Assembly: GCA_024275415.1 (NCBI GenBank) | Contig: JAJRZD010000006.1 | Span: forward strand, 1-29,672 | DNA: 29,672 bases | Direction of reading: 5' to 3' | From: an archaeon | GTDB taxonomy: Archaea; Asgardarchaeota; Thorarchaeia; Thorarchaeales; Thorarchaeaceae | Shown here: positions 1,834 to 18,918 of the stretch, piece after piece | Layout: each line of letters opens with the position of its first letter | How positions within the stretch are numbered: the stretch's first letter is position 1 | Notes under the pieces: model-generated | Databases searched by the model: none | What the model was told of the DNA's origin: nothing | What the model saw: only the letters and a program-made list of their open reading frames with translations | Position numbers and translations under genes: made by a program

Positions 1834-3426
1834 TCATTTCGCTAGCGGTATTGAGATATAGAAGCTGTTCATGCCCTCATGCAGGTTATGATCATATGAT
1901 AGTTGACCATCAAAAAGCTCGATAATTGAACGCGCAACAAAGATGTCAAAGTCAATGTTTGTGGAAAGTTGGACATTCTTTTGATGGAGGTATTCTTGGA
2001 TTGCATTCGTGAGTTCAATACCCGGACATTGAACACTCAGGATTACCGATTCACTTTGCACATCGCATTTGATTACAAAGGAGAGGTCTTCAGTTATCCG
2101 TGTCTTCACAACAAATGAAACGATACTCAGTATCGCGATGGAGAGCATTTCATTGGCCCTGAGTAACGGATTGTCGCGTACCTCAAGATAGGCTTTGAAT
2201 TCTTGGGGGTCAAGAAGAGAACCCACAAGATCCATCGCATTTGAGAGGATCATAGCTAAGGGTGTTGCGTACAGCATGTTATCTTTCGAGTCAAGGATTT
2301 GAGAGAGATTGGTCACTTGGAGGTTCAGTAATGTTGCTTCCCTGCTAAGTGTCTTTGCGCAGAACCGAATCTCCTTCAGATCCCCTGTTGCTAGGGAGGG
2401 AGTTCCCATCATATCAAGGTATATCAGTAATGCCTGTAGAAAGTTTCCCATTTTATGAGCCCACATTGCGAGATAGAACTCACTTTCAGCCTTTGACTGG
2501 CTCAATTCTCTGGTTCTTTGGCTCACAGTTTCCTCCAAGTTTCGTTGTGGTTCCAACACAGCAGAGAACAACATGCTAAATGCAAGCAGAAGGAACCCAA
2601 TACCAAAGGCTCCCAGCCAGATGATTTCAGCGAATTGGAAAGGACTCTCAAGAAGAACGAGAATGATTTCTCCGTAAAGCCAGAATCCCAGCGCCACGGT
2701 CGATACCATGATGACCCTATCTCGTGTTTTTATCCAATCATATGCATACTTGACAAGTGCCACAAGCATTGTGACCCCAATAGTAAGAACTAGCCCAAGT
2801 GCCAGAGGTGTAAGTCCTGTTAGACCTCCGCTTGGGCTCGTGACAGTGAATACCGGTTCAGGGCTAAAAAGGAACCAAAACCCAAGCGAGGGGATTATGA
2901 CCAGTGACCACAAAAGCGCAACGAATGAGTTTCTCTCGTTAGCAATAGTATTCCCTGTAAACGAGCCAGCAAGCATACCAGGAAAGATGACAATCCCCAT
3001 CAATAGGATTAGTGACCTGTTCCTGTTCCGATCTGCAAAGGAAATCCACCCTGAAAAAATCGGATGCGAAACGAGATAGGTCATAACAAGCATGATGAGG
3101 TCAAGAGCCATCAGGAGGATGACCAGATCATAGATACGCCGAGTTTGAAAGAATTGAACCGTTGAATGGGTCAGGATGATGCTCACGGAGGCCAGAATGC
3201 CTCCTGAGAACAGTGGAATTACGACTAAAATAAACTCTGGCGTAACAAGGCTCCAAACGGCCCCTGTCAGTGTGATTACGCCTAGATAGATGGCACAATA
3301 GGCACTCAGGACTAATATGACCACATCTGCCCATCTATAGCGTCTGCTATTCCTATCTTTCAACTGAACCAAGCATCCAAGCGAGGATAATGATGGTGTT
3401 CGAATATTATAAGATACCTTGTACAT
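1834..3426 (-). CDS. Membrane sensor (about 8 TM, MASE3-like) with His-containing DHp helix and a degenerate HATPase_c domain (probable pseudo-kinase), 530 aa
   Basis: About eight hydrophobic segments in residues ~30-295, signalling helix LEETVSQRTREL, H-box-like YLAMWAHKMGNFLQAL (His codon 2455-2457). The C-terminal fold pattern of HATPase_c is visible, but the N box reads SIVSFVVKT, G1 reads QCPGI and G2 reads DFDIF. Confidence 0.75.
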   Translation of the reverse strand: MYKVSYNIRTPSLSSLGCLVQLKDRNSRRYRWADVVILVLSAYCAIYLGVITLTGAVWSLVTPEFILVVIPLFSGGILASVSIILTHSTVQFFQTRRIYDLVILLMALDLIMLVMTYLVSHPIFSGWISFADRNRNRSLILLMGIVIFPGMLAGSFTGNTIANERNSFVALLWSLVIIPSLGFWFLFSPEPVFTVTSPSGGLTGLTPLALGLVLTIGVTMLVALVKYAYDWIKTRDRVIMVSTVALGFWLYGEIILVLLESPFQFAEIIWLGAFGIGFLLLAFSMLFSAVLEPQRNLEETVSQRTRELSQSKAESEFYLAMWAHKMGNFLQALLIYLDMMGTPSLATGDLKEIRFCAKTLSREATLLNLQVTNLSQILDSKDNMLYATPLAMILSNAMDLVGSLLDPQEFKAYLEVRDNPLLRANEMLSIAILSIVSFVVKTRITEDLSFVIKCDVQSESVILSVQCPGIELTNAIQEYLHQKNVQLSTNIDFDIFVARSIIELFDGQLSYDHNLHEGMNSFYISIPLAK

Positions 3427-3427
3427 A

Positions 3428-5152
3428 TTACTCGGTTATTAATAACCGCATGACCTCGACACGCAGGTCATCTTCAGACAGAAATCCGGTCAGTTCCTGC
3501 CCACCAATATGGATTGTGGGCAATGCTGGAAGGTCTTCCTCTGATACTCCTGCGGCAGGGTCATCGATATTGATGATATTGAGAATTGAGAGGCCAATCC
3601 CAAGATCGTTGAGAACCGTCTTTAGGGACTCAAGAACTGGACCGCAGAAGACACAATGATCAGACTTGTAAAAGTCAATGGGCGAAAATTCGACCTCCTC
3701 TTCCCATCTGGGTAGGATGACGATGACCTTGCATCCTTTCGATGGGTCACCTTTGACCCTATCCTCAATCCATATCCTACCTCCTAAATGGTGCACATAT
3801 CTATCGACGACGGTCAGTCCAAGTCCTTTGGTGCTAACATCTTCCGGCCTGCGCCTGAACACTTTCTGTTTCAGTTCGTCAGGTACTCCGGGACCTGAAT
3901 CAGCGAATTCGATCCGGACTTCACGTCCAAAATCCTCTGTTGTGACTCGGATTTCAACATTCACAACATCACTTGGATCGTGAGTCATGGCATTATGAAG
4001 AATGTTGAAGAATATGTTGTGAAGAAAGACATGACCCGCTACTTCGATGTCCTTGTCCTCTATCTCTGTTTCATATTTCAGCTCCTTGCCTTCAAAATCT
4101 CTCTGAACCTCGATCAAAGCCCGTTTGAGATGAGGCTCGATCTTAGTATTGGTGGTTGTTGGAGGTGTCCGGTTAAGGCTCAGCAAGACGCCCATGTTCA
4201 CAATCAGACGCCCTGCCCTGCGCAGATTCCAAGATGCATCTCGCACCAGCAGGGACTCCCTGGGTGGGAGTTCCACGGACACCTTAAGATCCTCTAGGGT
4301 AAATAGAATGGTCTGTAAGATGATATTCAAGTCGCTCGTCATCAAGTCGAAATAGAGATTGGCCCGGTCGCTTTCTTCTCTCAGTCTTTGTTCTGCTCCT
4401 CGACGCCGAGTTATATCAACAGCCGTCAAACCTATCTCTGATGGGGCTTCGCTTTCAGGGTTCAATGATCGAGCAGATACACTGACCCATATTGACCGGC
4501 CAGAACAATGTTCCATCTCCAACTCGATTCCCATGACACTCTTGCCTCTTAGAACCTCTCCAACAATGTCACGTCCTGGATCAAAACCAGTTTGACCACC
4601 CATCGGTCTAAAGAACGAACCTATCGAACGGCCAATGATATCCTCAGCATTACATCCTAGGAGTTCCTCTGATGCTGCATTGACTTGTGTGACAATGCCT
4701 TCTGAATTAATTGTGAAATAGGGGACAGGGGAGAAGTCATACAGAGCTGCAAATCGTTGTTCTAACTGAATGACAGCTTCCTGCAAAGCGAGCTGGCTTG
4801 AAATGTCACGGATTGCAGCGATGATAATCGGTTCATCTTCTACTTCGATTATGCGTGGGTTAATCTCCGCATGGAATACACGGCCAGATTTAGACTTCAT
4901 CCGTGTTATGAATTGTTCAGCTTTTTTGCCATCCAGAAGATCCTCAATCTGTCCCTGATGCTGCCGTTTTGCGATCGGATCGAGGAGATCCTCAAATTCC
5001 ATGTCCAGCATGTCCTCGACATCATACTCCAACATATCAGCAAAGAGACGATTGACCTGAATGATCTCGTCTGCATGGATAACGAACATTCCCTCATGGG
5101 CAACATCCAGCATCTGTTGAAGCAAATGATTCACATCTTTCAGACTGGACAT
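3428..5152 (-). CDS. PAS-PAS histidine-kinase-like protein with His-to-Ser H-box, intact HATPase_c and C-terminal thioredoxin-fold (CVFC) domain, 574 aa
   Basis: Two PAS/PAC domains (VNRLFADMLEY...IRDIS; VNAASEELLG...AVDITRRR). H-box reads LMTSDLN (AGC at 4334-4336). N box FNILHNAMTH, G1 DSGPGVP, G2 KGLGL. The last ~85 aa read DFYKSDHCVFCGP...LPALPTIHIG, with CxxC codons at 3644-3655 and the cis-Pro motif. Confidence 0.85.
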   Translation of the reverse strand: MSSLKDVNHLLQQMLDVAHEGMFVIHADEIIQVNRLFADMLEYDVEDMLDMEFEDLLDPIAKRQHQGQIEDLLDGKKAEQFITRMKSKSGRVFHAEINPRIIEVEDEPIIIAAIRDISSQLALQEAVIQLEQRFAALYDFSPVPYFTINSEGIVTQVNAASEELLGCNAEDIIGRSIGSFFRPMGGQTGFDPGRDIVGEVLRGKSVMGIELEMEHCSGRSIWVSVSARSLNPESEAPSEIGLTAVDITRRRGAEQRLREESDRANLYFDLMTSDLNIILQTILFTLEDLKVSVELPPRESLLVRDASWNLRRAGRLIVNMGVLLSLNRTPPTTTNTKIEPHLKRALIEVQRDFEGKELKYETEIEDKDIEVAGHVFLHNIFFNILHNAMTHDPSDVVNVEIRVTTEDFGREVRIEFADSGPGVPDELKQKVFRRRPEDVSTKGLGLTVVDRYVHHLGGRIWIEDRVKGDPSKGCKVIVILPRWEEEVEFSPIDFYKSDHCVFCGPVLESLKTVLNDLGIGLSILNIINIDDPAAGVSEEDLPALPTIHIGGQELTGFLSEDDLRVEVMRLLITE

Positions 5153-5275: not shown

Positions 5276-7657
5276 CTAACCGAATAATGAGTATTCCTTC
5301 ACTTTCTCAGCCATTTCTTTAAGGCGTTTGTCTACCAAGTAATAGACACTGCCTTCTTCAAAGGAGCCATCTTCGAGCCTCTTTCCAGCCTTGACGCCTG
5401 TCAGTATCTCGATGCCCTCTTCGATTGTACGGATGGGATAGATGTGGAACTTGCCATCTCGCGCGGACTGCACCACTTCCTCTTTTAGCATGAGGTTCTG
5501 TACATTGCTTTCAGGAATAAGCACCCCTTGATCACCAGTGAGTCCCTTTGCCTTGCACACCTCGTAGAATCCTTCGACCTTTTCATTGACGCCTCCGATT
5601 GCCTGCACTTGTCCGTGTTGGTCGACAGACCCAGTCACAGCAAAGTTCTGCTTTATGGGCACTCCAGAAAGTGCTGATAGAAGGGCGTAGAGTTCTGTGC
5701 TTGAAGCGCTGTCACCATCTACACCAGAATAGCTCTGTTCGAATACAATCCTTGCAGTCAGGCTGAGCGGTTTGTCCTGAGCAAAGACTTTTGAGAGATA
5801 CCCTGCGATGATCATGACTCCCTTTGTGTGTATATTCCCACCAAGATTTGATTCCCGCTCGATATCAACAAGTCCCTGTCGTCCTACAGCCACGCTTGCG
5901 GTCACTCGTGAGGGGCCTCCAAAGCTGAAATCACCAAATTGCATGACGGCAAGGCCATTGATCTGCCCGACAACACTTCCCTCGGTCTGGATACGGATGA
6001 CTCCTCGGATGATGTAGTCGCGAAGGTGTTCCTGTATCAAGTTCGAGCGATATATCTTCGCTTCGATTGCCATCTCGATGTGTTTGGCAGATACATGGGG
6101 AGTGTCTTCCTGTGAAGCATAGAACGTCGCTTCTCGGATAAGGTCGGCCACATCAGCGAACCGAGTGGAAAGCTTGTGCTTGTCAGCTGCTATCCGTGAA
6201 CTAAACTCGATCACTTTGGCTGCTGCGTCAGCATCCAGATGCATCAAGCCTTCTCTACCACAGACATTGGCCATGGCACCAGCATATTTCAAGATGTTCT
6301 CTTCATCTCTGAACATGGTTGTATCAAAGTGTGCCTTGACTTTGAAGAGTTCCTTGAAGTCAGGGTCTTCAGAATACAGCATCTCATACGTAGCTGTATC
6401 ACCAATAATGACAACTTTCACGTTCAATGGAATTGGCTCAGGTTTGAGGGTCTGCGCTGAAAGTGACGTGCCAGGGATGTGTACATCCTCAATTTCGATA
6501 ACCTCGTTTTTCAACGCGCGTTTCAAACTCTCATACGAACCAGGATTCTTGCCAAGACCTTCTATTGGAATCATGATGTACCCGCCGTTGGCTCGATGAA
6601 GGCTCCCGGGCTTTATCATGGTGAAATCCGTCGTGAGAATACCATACCGAGCTTCTTTCTCGATTCTCCCGAAGAGGTTAGCATAGGTCGGGTTCAGCTC
6701 CACGACTACTGGAGCGCCAGTGGTCTTTGCATGGCTCACCATGATGTTTACATCGTAACGAGTGAAGAATTGCTCTAGCCTACCAGCCTCCTCGGCAGAC
6801 TGAGGTGCCTTTGCTTGAATGATTGTTGAGATATTGTTCAGTAGACTCTCTTGTACGTCCTCGATATGTTTTGTAGCTTCATCAATTCCCTTGTACAAAT
6901 CCTTCATATCGGATATCATGTCACCAATCGCATACAGTGCCATCTCACGATTTAGCTTGTCCAGATTGGCATTGAGTTCACTATCCAGCTTCCTGAGCTT
7001 TCTCATGGCCTCCCTTAGATCGGTATCAATCGAGGAGCGGGCTTTGTTGAGTTGGTCAATCACTTCAGGACTGAGAGCAGCGATCTGTTCCTCCGTAAGG
7101 GGTTGCCCCTCAATCACGGGAATGACCATCACACCAGTCTGGGTCCCTTTAAGCAGGAATCCCTTGTCCTGCGCTTTCTTGCTGACCTCGGCGAATATCG
7201 CATTCCTTTGGGCATCAATAGTATGTGTGGTAGCCTGTCTTCGTGTCACGTAATCCTCGCTCTCAAACACTTCAGGAATGACCTGTCTTGTTGCTTCGAT
7301 AAGAGAATTAAGTTCCTTCTTGAACTTCTCAGCCATCCCACTTGGCAGCTCGATGGCATTGGGCTCAGACGGGTTCTCAAAATTGTAGACATAACACCAA
7401 TCAGAAGGTGGGTCACGCACGGCTGCACGTTCGCTGATGAAGGCGTTAACTGTCGTTGTCTTCCCAGTACCAGGTTCTCCAGCAGCATAGACATTGAAGC
7501 CCTTTTCCTTTATCGCCAGACCAAAGCTTAGCGCTTTTAGAGCACGTTCTTGTCCAATGATGTCATTGTTTGGAAGAAGATCCTTCGTCGTCTTACATCC
7601 TATGATATCTGGGCTACAATAAAAACGATAATCTTTCACATCAAGTTCCTTGACCAA
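5276..7657 (-). CDS. lon: Lon-family protease, LonC type (AAA_32 plus Lon_C, no membrane anchor), 793 aa
   Basis: IIGQERA start of the AAA module, Walker A GEPGTGKT, long coiled-coil insertion, KPGSLHRANGGY, Lon Ser-Lys dyad (GVDGDSAS and GGVNEKVEGF), C-terminal GVLIPESNVQNLML. No TM segment is present. Confidence 0.9.
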   Translation of the reverse strand: MVKELDVKDYRFYCSPDIIGCKTTKDLLPNNDIIGQERALKALSFGLAIKEKGFNVYAAGEPGTGKTTTVNAFISERAAVRDPPSDWCYVYNFENPSEPNAIELPSGMAEKFKKELNSLIEATRQVIPEVFESEDYVTRRQATTHTIDAQRNAIFAEVSKKAQDKGFLLKGTQTGVMVIPVIEGQPLTEEQIAALSPEVIDQLNKARSSIDTDLREAMRKLRKLDSELNANLDKLNREMALYAIGDMISDMKDLYKGIDEATKHIEDVQESLLNNISTIIQAKAPQSAEEAGRLEQFFTRYDVNIMVSHAKTTGAPVVVELNPTYANLFGRIEKEARYGILTTDFTMIKPGSLHRANGGYIMIPIEGLGKNPGSYESLKRALKNEVIEIEDVHIPGTSLSAQTLKPEPIPLNVKVVIIGDTATYEMLYSEDPDFKELFKVKAHFDTTMFRDEENILKYAGAMANVCGREGLMHLDADAAAKVIEFSSRIAADKHKLSTRFADVADLIREATFYASQEDTPHVSAKHIEMAIEAKIYRSNLIQEHLRDYIIRGVIRIQTEGSVVGQINGLAVMQFGDFSFGGPSRVTASVAVGRQGLVDIERESNLGGNIHTKGVMIIAGYLSKVFAQDKPLSLTARIVFEQSYSGVDGDSASSTELYALLSALSGVPIKQNFAVTGSVDQHGQVQAIGGVNEKVEGFYEVCKAKGLTGDQGVLIPESNVQNLMLKEEVVQSARDGKFHIYPIRTIEEGIEILTGVKAGKRLEDGSFEEGSVYYLVDKRLKEMAEKVKEYSLFG

Positions 7658-15454: not shown

Positions 15455-16087
15455 TCATCGGGTGTAGCAGCTAGTTGCGAAATCATGTTCTGCTGGCTGC
15501 TTTCGTTTTATGAGCACAACATTCACACGCTCGATTAGTTCTCTGGGGCTGAACGGTTTCGTGATATAGTCGTCAGCTCCAGATGAAAGCCCTTTCACCA
15601 TATCTGCGTCTTCGGATTTTGCTGTCAGCATGATTACAGCAGGTGCAGCATCTCCAAGCTTGGATTTGATCTCTGATACCACCTGATACCCATCTTTTCC
15701 AGGCATCATTACATCGACAATCACAACCTCTGGTTTATACATGAACACCTTCTTTATTCCTTCAATCCCATCGGACGCCGTAATTACTTCAAACCCGTCC
15801 TTGGAAAGTTTAATTTGAATGAGCCTGCGTATGTCTGCTTCATCGTCAATTGCAACGATTCGGATAGCATCGGATGGTTCAACCTCTGTGTAGTCTTTAG
15901 ATTTCAAGATACGATAAAGAAGAAACGTTCCTACTAGAATGAAGACAATGCCAGCTGTATTTAGACTGGTTCCAAAAACGGGGTCAATAGAGATACTTGT
16001 AGTCAGAACGAGAATGATTAGTAGTGTTCCAGTTATGAAGAGCACCAGAGACGACAGGATACCGATGTGTTTCATTGAATCTCGCAC
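15455..16087 (-). CDS. Membrane-anchored response regulator: two N-terminal TM helices plus one REC domain, about 210 aa
   Basis: Hydrophobic IGILSSLVLFITGTLLIILVL and TAGIVFILVGTFLLY, then REC with IDDE, phospho-Asp IVDVMMPG, MLTA and ITKPFSPREL. Start placed at GTG 16087 behind the strong SD AGAGGTGATCC (16099-16089). The longer ORF from 16165 runs through AT-rich promoter-like DNA. Confidence 0.8.
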   Translation of the reverse strand: MRDSMKHIGILSSLVLFITGTLLIILVLTTSISIDPVFGTSLNTAGIVFILVGTFLLYRILKSKDYTEVEPSDAIRIVAIDDEADIRRLIQIKLSKDGFEVITASDGIEGIKKVFMYKPEVVIVDVMMPGKDGYQVVSEIKSKLGDAAPAVIMLTAKSEDADMVKGLSSGADDYITKPFSPRELIERVNVVLIKRKQPAEHDFATSCYTR

Positions 16088-16088
16088 T

Positions 16089-16160
16089 GGATCACCTCTA
16101 TTATTTAGGATATTAGACATAAAATAATGATATATTTGGTTATTATGTATATTTGCGACT
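16089..16160 (-). promoter_or_regulatory. AT-rich promoter-like segment and SD for the TM-REC / helicase / kinase unit
   Basis: Minus strand reads aaatatacataataaccaaatatatcattattttatgtctaatatcctaaataatagaggtgatcc. AGGTGATCC is complementary to the conserved 16S rRNA 3' end. Confidence 0.5.
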
Positions 16161-16161
16161 T

Positions 16162-17439
16162 TCATAGAATGACGTCCGACAGATAACGTCCGTACTTGTC
16201 ATGGCAACGTTTCCTAATTGGATCAAGCACCTCTTTCTCTACATCAATCCTAGTTTCTGCTGCGAGAAGTTCCGAAATGATGTCCATGACTTTGTCAATT
16301 CCTTCATAGATGTCATTTAGGTCTGTAGGCGTTGTATCTGCCTCAAGAGGATAGACCAATGTGGAGTCTGCTCTCACCGAGAATGTTCCAACGCGAGGAA
16401 GTTCATCAATAAGATAATCGATGGCTTGATCGAGATATGATTTTGCTGTTGAACTCCCAACAAGGTTTGCACACGCCTGTAGGAATTGCGAGAGAATGCA
16501 ATCGTTTAGCAGCAATATTCGACGTTCTAATGGGATTCGCTGAATGAAACCATTACTGATGAGGCGACCAAGTTCAAGCAATAGCTCTTCGTTCTCACGT
16601 ATGCCCAGTTCTTTGAGAATTTCGGTCACAGTCTTTCTACCGTCCAACTTGGTCAGGAAACGCAAGAGATTATGGGATAGAGAATATGGATTACCTTTCG
16701 CGAATAGCAATGTCGAAGACCCCTCAGAAAGAGACAAGATATCTTCACCATCAGGAATCGAGATAACCTTCGCTGCATGGTTCCAGAATGCCCTCGAAAC
16801 GAACTCCTTCGCATCATTGATGCTTATCTTCTGATGCTGTGCTATCTCTTGTATCGAATTCCAATCCTCACTTTGCAAGAGGGTCTTGGTGACTTTGTAG
16901 ACCGTGGATGGCCGACCAAGTTCTCGTAACTTCTCTCTCCAATCAGGAGGCTTGATGACTATCGCCCTGTTGGAGATATAGTCGCTAGTGAACACTCTCC
17001 GGACGTAAGCATCGAACTCCTTGAAAAGGGTGCCTCGTACATGATCCATATCCCGCAGGAGCTGGAAGCTCTCCTCAAACTCCTGAACGATGCGTCGGAG
17101 TTTACTTCGTGCTTCGCTTGTTTCTCGCTGAACAGCAAGGACTCCAAGGCACCATTCGCCTCCTTCAACAATTAGGGTTGCATTAGACCCGTAGACGGTC
17201 TTCCATGCACGTTGGTTTTTCCCGATGAGCTCACCCATGAAGCTCGAGATAGCCGAGATGAGACCAGACAGTAGCTGTGGATCCTGACCACTTGTCACAA
17301 ACTCGTGTGAATAGGGACAAACACCAGATTCGCGGTTCAGGATGAATACGACTATTTCGTTACACTGTATTTCGCCACCGAGTTCTGCTGCATCAAACCC
17401 AGCATCCCTCAGAGAAGATGCAACTTCATTCATAACCAT
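16162..17439 (-). CDS. Asgard-type longin-like domain protein with two predicted winged-helix domains, 425 aa
   Basis: N-terminal VVFILNRESGVCPYSHEF...DPQLLSGLISAISSFMGEL...LIVEGGEWCLGVLAV...ARSKLRRIVQEFEESF is the beta-beta-alpha-beta-beta-beta-alpha longin pattern. It is followed by wHTH-like SIQEIAQHQKISINDAKEFVSRAFW and LDGRKTVTEILKELG...LGRLISNGFIQRI. SD GAGG lies upstream of ATG 17439. Confidence 0.7.
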   Translation of the reverse strand: MVMNEVASSLRDAGFDAAELGGEIQCNEIVVFILNRESGVCPYSHEFVTSGQDPQLLSGLISAISSFMGELIGKNQRAWKTVYGSNATLIVEGGEWCLGVLAVQRETSEARSKLRRIVQEFEESFQLLRDMDHVRGTLFKEFDAYVRRVFTSDYISNRAIVIKPPDWREKLRELGRPSTVYKVTKTLLQSEDWNSIQEIAQHQKISINDAKEFVSRAFWNHAAKVISIPDGEDILSLSEGSSTLLFAKGNPYSLSHNLLRFLTKLDGRKTVTEILKELGIRENEELLLELGRLISNGFIQRIPLERRILLLNDCILSQFLQACANLVGSSTAKSYLDQAIDYLIDELPRVGTFSVRADSTLVYPLEADTTPTDLNDIYEGIDKVMDIISELLAAETRIDVEKEVLDPIRKRCHDKYGRYLSDVIL

Positions 17440-17447
17440 CGCCTCAT

Positions 17448-17813
17448 TCAGGCTGCTGCTACTGACGTTTCTAGTATGCTGAATAAATCTGCGCTTCGAA
17501 TCGGCTTTGTTAGGAACGCCACCGCACCTGAAGAAAGTGCCTCTGCCTTCACGGTATCATCTGCACTTATGAAAATGACCACAAGATTCGGATTGATCTC
17601 CTTTAACTTCTTCGTGGCCTCAGAACCATTCATCACGGGCATTCGATGATCCATTAGGATAACCTCTGGTTTTGGCTCGGACTGAAGATAGTTCGAAATC
17701 GCCTCGGCGCCATTGCTGGCCTGAGAAACCACCTTATGACCTCCGATTGTCAGAATCCTGTTCAAGACTTTTCTTAGAAATTGGTCGTCGTCCACAATCA
17801 TTACTGAAACCAT
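17448..17813 (-). CDS. Stand-alone response regulator (REC), 121 aa
   Basis: IVDDD, phospho-Asp LMDHRMP, FISAD, LTKP. True start is ATG 17813, one base after the upstream kinase TAA. The longer ORF-track version overlaps that kinase. Confidence 0.92.
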   Translation of the reverse strand: MVSVMIVDDDQFLRKVLNRILTIGGHKVVSQASNGAEAISNYLQSEPKPEVILMDHRMPVMNGSEATKKLKEINPNLVVIFISADDTVKAEALSSGAVAFLTKPIRSADLFSILETSVAAA

Positions 17814-17814
17814 C

Positions 17815-18918
17815 TTATGCAACCTCCTGACTTTTTGCCTTGGCCAATCCCGTATTCTCACCTCTATGCAACATAAGTACAAAAGATGCTCCTTCTTTGC
17901 TCTTCCCAGGAATCCGGTCTTCCACTCTGATATAGCCCCCATAATGCTCCACGATTTTTTTCACAAGTGTCAGCCCTAATCCCAATCCTTCCCTTGTGAG
18001 CTGGCGATGGACTGACTCCTGAAAGATGAGCTCCTTCTCTGAATCAGGAATGCCAGGACCATCATCCTTCACCTCAATACGAAGGAATGGTGTGAATTGA
18101 ACTGGCTGAACAACCACCTAGATTGTAACATCCTTCTTCTTGCTATGTTTCAACGAATTGTGCAATAGGCTGTAGAATATGTCTACAAGGTATTCATCAG
18201 CGACGACAAAGTATTCGCCGTGTTCAACATCTGTAACAAGCTTCAATGTCTTTTCAGGAAATGCCAAACGTGCTTGGATTGCCCCGCGAAGCAGAGCGAG
18301 TGAGATGTCCATGCACTGTAGGTCAGGCAACGCTTTTGAAACGATTGAAATCTTGCGTACGCTGGATATCAGACGCGTTGCTCTCTCAATCTCTGAAATC
18401 CCTTCTTTGATAATCCCAACTGTTTCATTCGGAAGATCCTCGTTCAGAATGAGGAAATCAAGCATGGAGATTATCTCCTGATGGATGTTTGCAAGATCGT
18501 GGGTCATGATATCAATCAGAAACTCAGTCTGATTACGCTCACGTTCCAAATCCTCTTCCATTTTCTTTTGTTTAGAGATATCCCTGAACAATGCGATTGT
18601 GGATACCTTCTTTCCACCTTCGAAGAACGGCGAAAATGCTCCCTCGACATGAAGCATCTCTCCTTCCTTTGTGACCATAATTGTCTGCACATCTGAAATG
18701 ATTTCATGTGTATCCTTTGTTACTATCGCCTTGATTTTCTTCTGCTCACCAGGGAAGAAGATTGTTCCGATACTTAGAGTGTCAATCTCCGATTCCGAAT
18801 AATGCAGCTTCTCCATAAGCGCCCGGTTGACGTAGCTGAAAGTACCATCTTTATTGATACTTGTAATAATATCATTGGTGCCTTCCATTAAATGCCAAGC
18901 TATTTGCATCGGATCCAT
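17815..18918 (-). pseudogene. PAS histidine kinase interrupted by one in-frame TAG (18118-18120) inside HATPase_c; 367 aa if read through
   Basis: ORFs 18118-18918 and 17815-18117 are contiguous and in the same frame: ...NSLKHSKKKDVTI*VVVQPVQFTPFLRIEVKDDGPGIP... The H-box MTHDLAN and N box lie before the stop, and G1 DDGPG and G2 GLGLGL lie after it, all intact. Confidence 0.75.

Follow-up and report, generated by a model that had tools for sequence, protein, structure and literature searches.

Within the window, a stretch of 29,672 nucleotides from an archaeon of the family Thorarchaeaceae (GenBank assembly GCA_024275415.1, contig JAJRZD010000006.1, forward-strand positions 1 to 29,672), two adjacent genes on the minus strand, here called A and B, encode true histidine-kinase homologues with reciprocal and conserved defects: A keeps its ATP-binding boxes and lacks the acceptor histidine, and B keeps the histidine and lacks the boxes. 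These defects are real, old and under selection. A first-pass annotation made from the sequence letters had described the open reading frames (ORFs), sequences and motifs of both genes, all of which we confirmed, and had proposed that neither protein is competent alone and hence that the two form an obligate heterodimer; we find a pair of co-expressed pseudo-kinases more likely than a single kinase that obligatorily needs both proteins. Each would have evolved independently of the other, keeping one half of the histidine-kinase toolkit, and only one genus of the archaeal family would later have brought them together as a transcription unit.

Gene A encodes a cytoplasmic PAS-PAS-DHp-HATPase_c-thioredoxin-fold protein, DHp being the dimerization and histidine-phosphotransfer domain, and is a His-less histidine-kinase homologue. 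Ser273, within an H-box that reads MTSDL, aligns with the acceptor His of 21 paralogues, and no acceptor His is present in the H-box of DHp helix 1; Asp274 is retained, the residue four positions after the His (His+4) is Ile where the paralogues have Asn, and Pfam finds no HisKA domain in the protein. The ATP boxes are all in place, namely N (N383/N387), G1 (D418-x-G-x-G, with G420 and G422) and G2 (G443-L-G-L, with G445), and the first-pass reading of a degenerate H-box beside intact boxes was borne out by alignments and by the Pfam HATPase_c match. The C-terminus has the thioredoxin fold, with the order beta-alpha-beta-alpha-beta-beta-alpha, a CxxC at the start of helix 1 and a cis-Pro loop; its profile matches the Methanocaldococcus jannaschii thioredoxin 1FO5 (E value 0.015), and its model (predicted local distance difference test, pLDDT, 80.6) retrieves thioredoxins in Foldseek with template-modeling (TM) scores of 0.65-0.74. 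Three kinds of input had been proposed for the pair and all of them are real: A has a pair of PAS domains and, with its invariant CxxC, a thioredoxin fold, and B has a MASE3-like membrane domain.

The loss of the histidine was followed in a set of A-type sequences made of 40 orthologues and paralogues fetched from relatives and 22 more obtained through a family-wide search. All of them, the His-bearing clade included, share the PAS-DHp-CA build (CA, the catalytic and ATP-binding domain) and a C-terminal domain with the invariant CxxC. Orthologues of gene A are 71-40% identical, and in the maximum-likelihood tree every His-less sequence falls in one clade of 41 (approximate likelihood-ratio test, aLRT, 99), which spans at least 11 genera and is nested among the His-bearing paralogues; the acceptor His was thus lost once. 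Position 273 is H in 21/21 paralogues and S, N, Q, T or R across the His-less clade, and the His+4 Asn is lost throughout the His-less sequences except in one genome (G008). The H-box neighbors T272, D274, L275 and N276 are invariant, or nearly so, in the same clade, which suggests a conserved binding surface. In genus g6, sampled through 22 newly sequenced orthologues (L069-L090) together with G011, the Mg-ATP Asn of the N box is replaced by Tyr, His or Phe in 23/23 sequenced His-less orthologues, which we read as a probable second step of pseudokinase decay, confined to that genus; in the orthologue of G016, the N, G1 and G2 boxes are all lost. From these losses at the ATP site, the ancestral role of the His-less proteins cannot need ATP turnover in every lineage. 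The g6 orthologues keep G1, mostly G2, and the CxxC.

One may ask whether A is instead a GHKL-type protein kinase acting on Ser/Thr, like PDK/BCKDK, SpoIIAB or the plant phytochromes, or autophosphorylates on Ser273. Ser is the commonest residue at that position, and despite the loss of the His, genera g1, g2, g3, g4, g8, g13, g15 and g16 keep every ATP box intact. However, the drift of position 273 among S, N, Q, T and R means that it is not a conserved phospho-acceptor and rules out Ser273 as an alternative one, and with the Mg-ATP Asn gone from genus g6 we consider a Ser/Thr kinase very improbable.

A second proposal is that A partners its own His-bearing paralogue, in a kinase/pseudokinase heterodimer or a regulatory complex, with B functionally unrelated. 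The paralogue in the genome of the window (G000, contig C21:45956-47269) has the PAS-DHp-CA-thioredoxin build, its kinase core is 37% identical to that of A (E 9e-53), the CxxC is invariant in both clades, and a His-bearing paralogue occurs in 15/17 sampled genomes with a His-less copy (G003 and G007 gave partial matches only). Paralogous kinases can indeed heterodimerize, as ChrS-HrrS (PMC9491836) and RetS-GacS (PMC12189002) illustrate, but A and its paralogue are never adjacent and the proposal offers no reason why A and B stay neighbors in the genus, so that we hold this arrangement to be distinctly unlikely.

Another paralogue is found in the window itself. At 18118-18918 it reads MTHDL, as do 21 other paralogues and as the first-pass annotation had noted when comparing it with A; what the annotation had missed is that this PAS-DHp gene (17857-18918, minus strand) is interrupted by an in-frame TAG after the N box. 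The frame continues beyond the TAG and matches the remaining kinase ATPase domain (open frame of 369 aa with one TAG), and single in-frame stops are common in the kinase matches of relatives. Pyrrolysine was considered for the in-frame TAGs of the neighboring kinases and discarded, since the genome (92.9% complete) matched neither PylS nor PylD.

Gene B itself gave no Pfam or NCBIfam match, HATPase_c included. Its family amounted to only 72 representative sequences in an exhaustive search of 1.8 billion proteins, and a search for B-type loci in genome contigs returned one distant locus only. Among 46 aligned members, Pfam recognizes HATPase_c in 18, MASE3 in 10 and HisKA in nine; the MASE3 (PF17159) matches cover the region homologous to the helices of B, with a best E value of 7.7e-53, and B itself has none. 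By these matches in its relatives, gene B would belong to the MASE3-type sensor kinases as a divergent branch. When its cytoplasmic part was searched as a profile, histidine kinases of solved structure matched across DHp and CA (ZraS, E 4.5e-25), and His324 is aligned on the acceptor His of ZraS. The AlphaFold model of this part (pLDDT 88.8) consists of a helical hairpin (helices 4-53 and 60-92) and an alpha/beta domain, and superposes on HK853, RetS and DivL with TM-scores up to 0.77, the best being to DivL (0.72-0.77). The alpha/beta domain has a GHKL-like fold without the N-box Asn, the G1 Asp and the G2 glycines; the motif table and the profile alignment thus agree with the first-pass description of a His kept in WAHKMGN and the three boxes lost.

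The boxes are absent from B and from its 28 closest representatives, and the decay is nested within the family. Nine distant members retain N, G1 and G2, have E or D immediately after the His (His+1) and match HATPase_c; seven members of an intermediate group have degenerate boxes and E at His+1; and in the group formed by B and its closest relatives (29 members) the boxes are lost and His+1 is K or R, residues found there in 29/44 members of the family, all of them with dead ATP boxes. Throughout the 46-sequence alignment His324 and Asn328 are the sole invariant columns. Among HisKA kinases, kinase but not phosphatase activity depends on the acid at His+1, and phosphatase but not kinase activity on the Asn/Thr at His+4 (PMC3510030). 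B has Lys325 in place of the kinase-specific acid, and Asn328, at His+4, conforms to the phosphatase motif, so that its H-box residues are suggestive, and only that, of a phosphatase or phosphotransferase rather than a substrate of autokinase activity. Such roles have been proposed for archaeal HisKA proteins without a working ATPase (PMC5847659). With the acceptor His and the phosphatase Asn both retained, B would most likely act on a response regulator, either as a signal-controlled phosphatase or as a phosphotransferase similar to Spo0B/ChpT. The unpaired B paralogues that were checked (5/5) are orphans beside housekeeping genes, with no kinase or regulator gene adjacent.

Genes A and B are close and co-oriented with either start of B. 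On the minus strand the junction is formed by TAA (3430-3428), T (3427) and ATG (3426-3424), hence the one-base gap of the first-pass annotation is present in the sequence and holds if B starts at ATG 3426. In all homologues of B, however, the start corresponds to TTG 3363 (codon 22), the first 21 residues being unconserved, and from this the true spacer may be 64 nt, in a range of 63-70 nt among the relatives. The two genes are probably co-transcribed. Their adjacency is confined to genus g1, where it occurs in 5/7 genomes (G000, G001, G003, G005 and G006) and in two metagenome or NCBI loci (L065 and L068), in all seven loci with the genes co-oriented and at most 70 nt apart. The reciprocal motif states are identical in all adjacent pairs of the genus, and since a pair with the same states recurs in G001, G003, G005, G006, L065 and L068, the arrangement is more than chance.

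The distribution of the genes beyond these loci speaks against an obligate kinase. G004 lies inside genus g1, as sister to G003 and G006 in the tree; its A gene is flanked by the same Lon and HdrC/HdrB genes and no B occupies the syntenic site, so that B was most parsimoniously lost there. The 345-bp gap of G004 gave no nucleotide match to B and one opposite-strand tblastn match of 36 residues (E 4e-4, for a 400-base subject), which we took as chance and not as a remnant, the closest B orthologues giving none. In G007, a 94% complete genome of the sister genus, the B family gave no match, and the ATP boxes of the A orthologue are intact. Among 86 genomes of the archaeal family, 26 have both genes, 31 only an A-like gene, 10 only a B-family gene and 19 neither, which corresponds to an odds ratio of 1.6 (p 0.36, uncorrected for kinship) and gives no signal of co-occurrence beyond chance. 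The first-pass annotation had suggested looking for orthologues that stay adjacent with the same reciprocal losses; they do so in genus g1, whereas outside it they are separate and G004 lacks B, and separate orthologues were the very observation that it had named as speaking against its own proposal.

Given that the His-less clade spans so many genera and that the decay of the B family affects paired and unpaired members alike, each defect, the loss of the His in A and of the ATPase in B, is older than the pairing, which is itself a later, genus-specific event. A and B each evidently work without the other in many genomes. The claim that neither is competent alone and that they are therefore an obligate heterodimer is not supported, in view of defects that predate the pairing, the lack of co-occurrence and the cases of G004 and G007, to which the Asn loss of genus g6 and Lys325 are added. 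On contig C28 of G013 and contig C1 of G045, genomes of two different genera, about 24-25 kb separate an A orthologue from a B-family gene, a spacing that may represent a looser ancestral linkage before the tight pairing.

A split-function kinase could nevertheless operate in this genus, the ATP domain of A phosphorylating His324 of B in trans within a hetero-oligomer whose output would require the membrane, PAS and redox signals at once. ATP domain and acceptor His do reside on separate proteins, A having intact boxes and no acceptor His and B an invariant His and no ATP boxes, and the tight, co-oriented spacing of the seven loci speaks for the same idea. Trans complementation between defective EnvZ mutants and between defective NtrB mutants also counts in its favor. 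CheA3/CheA4 provide a precedent for split kinases (PMC3591291). On the other side, the halves are not co-inherited: both defects are older than the pairing, A keeps its boxes in the absence of any B-family gene (G007) or of a syntenic B (G004), and 10 genomes have the B family and no close A orthologue. B also lacks the His+1 acid needed in HisKA autokinase chemistry (PMC3510030). The DHp domains of A and B are too divergent for significant alignment, the kinase cores showing no significant similarity (E 0.55). A complex predicted from A (248-486) and B (288-530), both with alignments, scored 0.24 (mark 0.32) in a run without controls, which speaks neither for binding nor against it. Taken together, trans-phosphorylation from A to B is possible and, in our judgment, unlikely; that a natural split-function kinase of two full-length sensors, working as a three-input AND gate, was assembled secondarily from two pre-existing pseudo-kinases is doubtful.

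It is hardly credible that one or both genes are decaying, functionless relics. Catalytic residues are gone from both, as a relic would have it, but the frames are open, full-length and conserved in many species, B has its invariant His324 and Asn328 and A its invariant CxxC and many further invariant columns, and the models are confidently folded. We give roughly even credence to the reading in which the two genes are expressed together in this genus, B as a sensor that is dead as a kinase and serves as phosphatase or phosphotransferase, and A as a pseudokinase with redox and PAS inputs. B would be a MASE3-type membrane sensor with a decayed ATPase domain that kept the acceptor His and the phosphatase Asn. 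A would be a cytoplasmic sensor of PAS and thiol-redox inputs that has lost all DHp chemistry, is predicted to bind ATP still in this genus, and most likely acts by binding, as a DivL-like modulator and not as a phospho-donor. Both may feed the same pathway, possibly one linked to redox or to heterodisulfide reductase (Hdr). In this reading the anatomy of the domains, the states of the motifs, their phylogenetic distribution and the succession of events are shown by the data, and the activities and the common pathway are deduced from them.

Several observations weigh against this preferred reading. Between the paired species of genus g1, the A proteins have diverged to 58-73% and the B proteins to 43-62% identity, and the adjacency is kept; together with the exact reciprocal retention of the motifs, this argues for functional coupling. 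An invariant His beside a dead ATPase needs a phospho-donor, and A has the nearest intact ATP domain. Since kinases of the HisKA_2/HWE type can function with a basic His+1 residue, Lys325 does not settle the matter. Finally, no receiver or response-regulator gene is encoded adjacent to A or B.

The coordinates of the features are collected in Table 1. In the relatives the A/B pair is flanked by genes for a LonB protease and for HdrC/B/A-MvhD-type proteins, and the Lon neighbor of gene A is also present in L051, L058, L065 and L068. Downstream of the A/B locus, these four have HdrC-, HdrB- and HdrA-like genes and MvhD/FlpD, and in G007 FlpD is immediately upstream of the A orthologue (L052 1719-2165); in the window, convergent cupin and PKD-domain ORFs (1-1702) take the place of the Hdr/MvhD block. 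The heterodisulfide-reductase neighborhood fits a thiol-redox input through the CxxC thioredoxin-fold domain of A. Beside A orthologues outside genus g1, the conserved downstream gene encodes a TrmO_N-domain protein and no kinase or regulator; this gene, of 142-151 aa, was seen about 65 nt downstream of the His-less kinase gene in three other genera. An Rfam search of the window gave no match. Pfam gave nothing at E 0.001 for a 425-aa ORF (16162-17439, minus strand) that is flanked by two receiver-domain genes; the candidate receiver proteins of the genome include those encoded at 15455-16165 and 17448-17942. Elsewhere in the genome (G000 contig C73:101853-102956) there is a full-length actin homologue (Pfam Actin, E 5e-133, 443.6 bits), consistent with the Asgard assignment.

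Table 1. Features of the A/B locus, and TrmO_N-domain genes near His-less kinase genes of other genera (the latter in the coordinates of their own loci).
Feature	Position	Strand	Extent	Basis and remarks
Gene A (P0001)	3428..5152	minus	574 aa	ORF, translation, Pfam, orthologues in at least 11 genera
Gene A PAS domain 1	4802..5125	minus	residues about 10-117	Pfam PAS/PAS_8/PAS_9
Gene A PAS domain 2	4400..4732	minus	residues about 141-251	Pfam PAS_9/PAS_4
Gene A degenerate H-box MTSDL	4328..4342	minus	residues 271-275	Alignments; Ser273 codon 4334-4336
Gene A HATPase_c	3707..4027	minus		Pfam E 1.5e-17; N, G1, G2 intact
Gene A C-terminal thioredoxin fold	3431..3700	minus		Invariant CxxC (C500, C503), cis-Pro
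Gene B (P0002)	1834..3426	minus	530 aa from ATG 3426	Alternative start TTG 3363
Gene B membrane region	2545..3333	minus	residues about 32-294	Hydropathy; about 8 hydrophobic helices
Gene B DHp hairpin	2290..2556	minus	residues about 291-379	Invariant columns, ZraS alignment, model
Gene B H-box WAHKMGN	2443-2463	minus	residues 322-328	His324 codon 2455-2457; Asn328; Lys325
Gene B pseudo-CA	1837..2271	minus	residues about 386-530	Model, Foldseek, motif table
LonB-type protease gene	5276..7657	minus		Pfam; upstream of gene A, co-oriented; conserved neighbor in genus
TrmO_N-domain gene, L052	4772-5224			
TrmO_N-domain gene, L053	2469-2921			
TrmO_N-domain gene, L055	2308-2733			
TrmO_N-domain gene, L057	2503-2949			

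In the literature we found no description of the A-B pair, of the His-less A clade or of the B clade; the absence of the catalytic His from some Asgard kinases is remarked on, in passing only, in one paper (PMC10343646). The concepts of a pseudo-kinase, of a split kinase and of a DHp protein without a working ATPase are already known. Pseudo-histidine kinases and split kinases, however, are known from few bacterial cases, and the locus adds two dated, family-wide archaeal examples: a thioredoxin-fused kinase clade in which the acceptor His was lost once and the ATP site then lineage by lineage, and a lineage of MASE3 sensors with stepwise decay of the ATPase and an invariant His and phosphatase Asn. 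Their secondary joining is a natural experiment on the ways in which half-enzymes that complement one another might be brought together, and if trans-phosphorylation between A and B were true, split kinases could arise by recruitment rather than by gene fission.

Split histidine kinases have been described before, Rv0600c/Rv0601c of Mycobacterium tuberculosis among them. In CheA3/CheA4 of Rhodobacter sphaeroides (PMC3591291), ATP binding and the acceptor His are on separate polypeptides, as in A and B; whole domains are missing in systems of that type, whereas A and B keep the full DHp and CA fold and differ in point motifs only, and the halves of the archaeal pair are not co-inherited across the family. 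Catalytically impaired sensor kinases that modulate another sensor kinase by direct contact are exemplified by RetS-GacS (PMC12189002) and ChrS-HrrS (PMC9491836), which, unlike A and B, are not reciprocally defective and are not a pair of orphan sensors encoded in one operon.

The membrane domain and HisKA core of B would descend from the MASE3 sensor histidine kinases (PF17159, NF047874), from which B and its 28 closest relatives differ by having neither ATP boxes nor the His+1 acid, B itself falling below the Pfam thresholds. With Spo0B/ChpT and the archaeal proteins that have HisKA and no HATPase (PMC5847659), B shares a DHp domain with a conserved His next to an ATPase-like domain that is predicted to be unable to bind ATP, and for such proteins a phosphotransfer or phosphatase role has been proposed. 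Nonetheless, Spo0B and ChpT are small soluble relays, unlike B with its membrane-integral sensor of probable MASE3 descent, neither of the two is among the best 60 of 82 solved-structure matches to the B profile, and no receiver genes flank B or its paralogues. Gene A is closest in kind to DivL of Caulobacter (PDB 4Q20; PMC4211667), in which the acceptor His is likewise replaced, the DHp-CA fold kept and the inputs are PAS domains. DivL has Tyr at the position of the His and binds DivK~P to control CckA (PMC4211667); by analogy, we infer from the conserved T272, D274, L275 and N276 that A may signal by binding a phosphorylated regulator, with the thioredoxin-fold domain as an addition that sets it apart from DivL.

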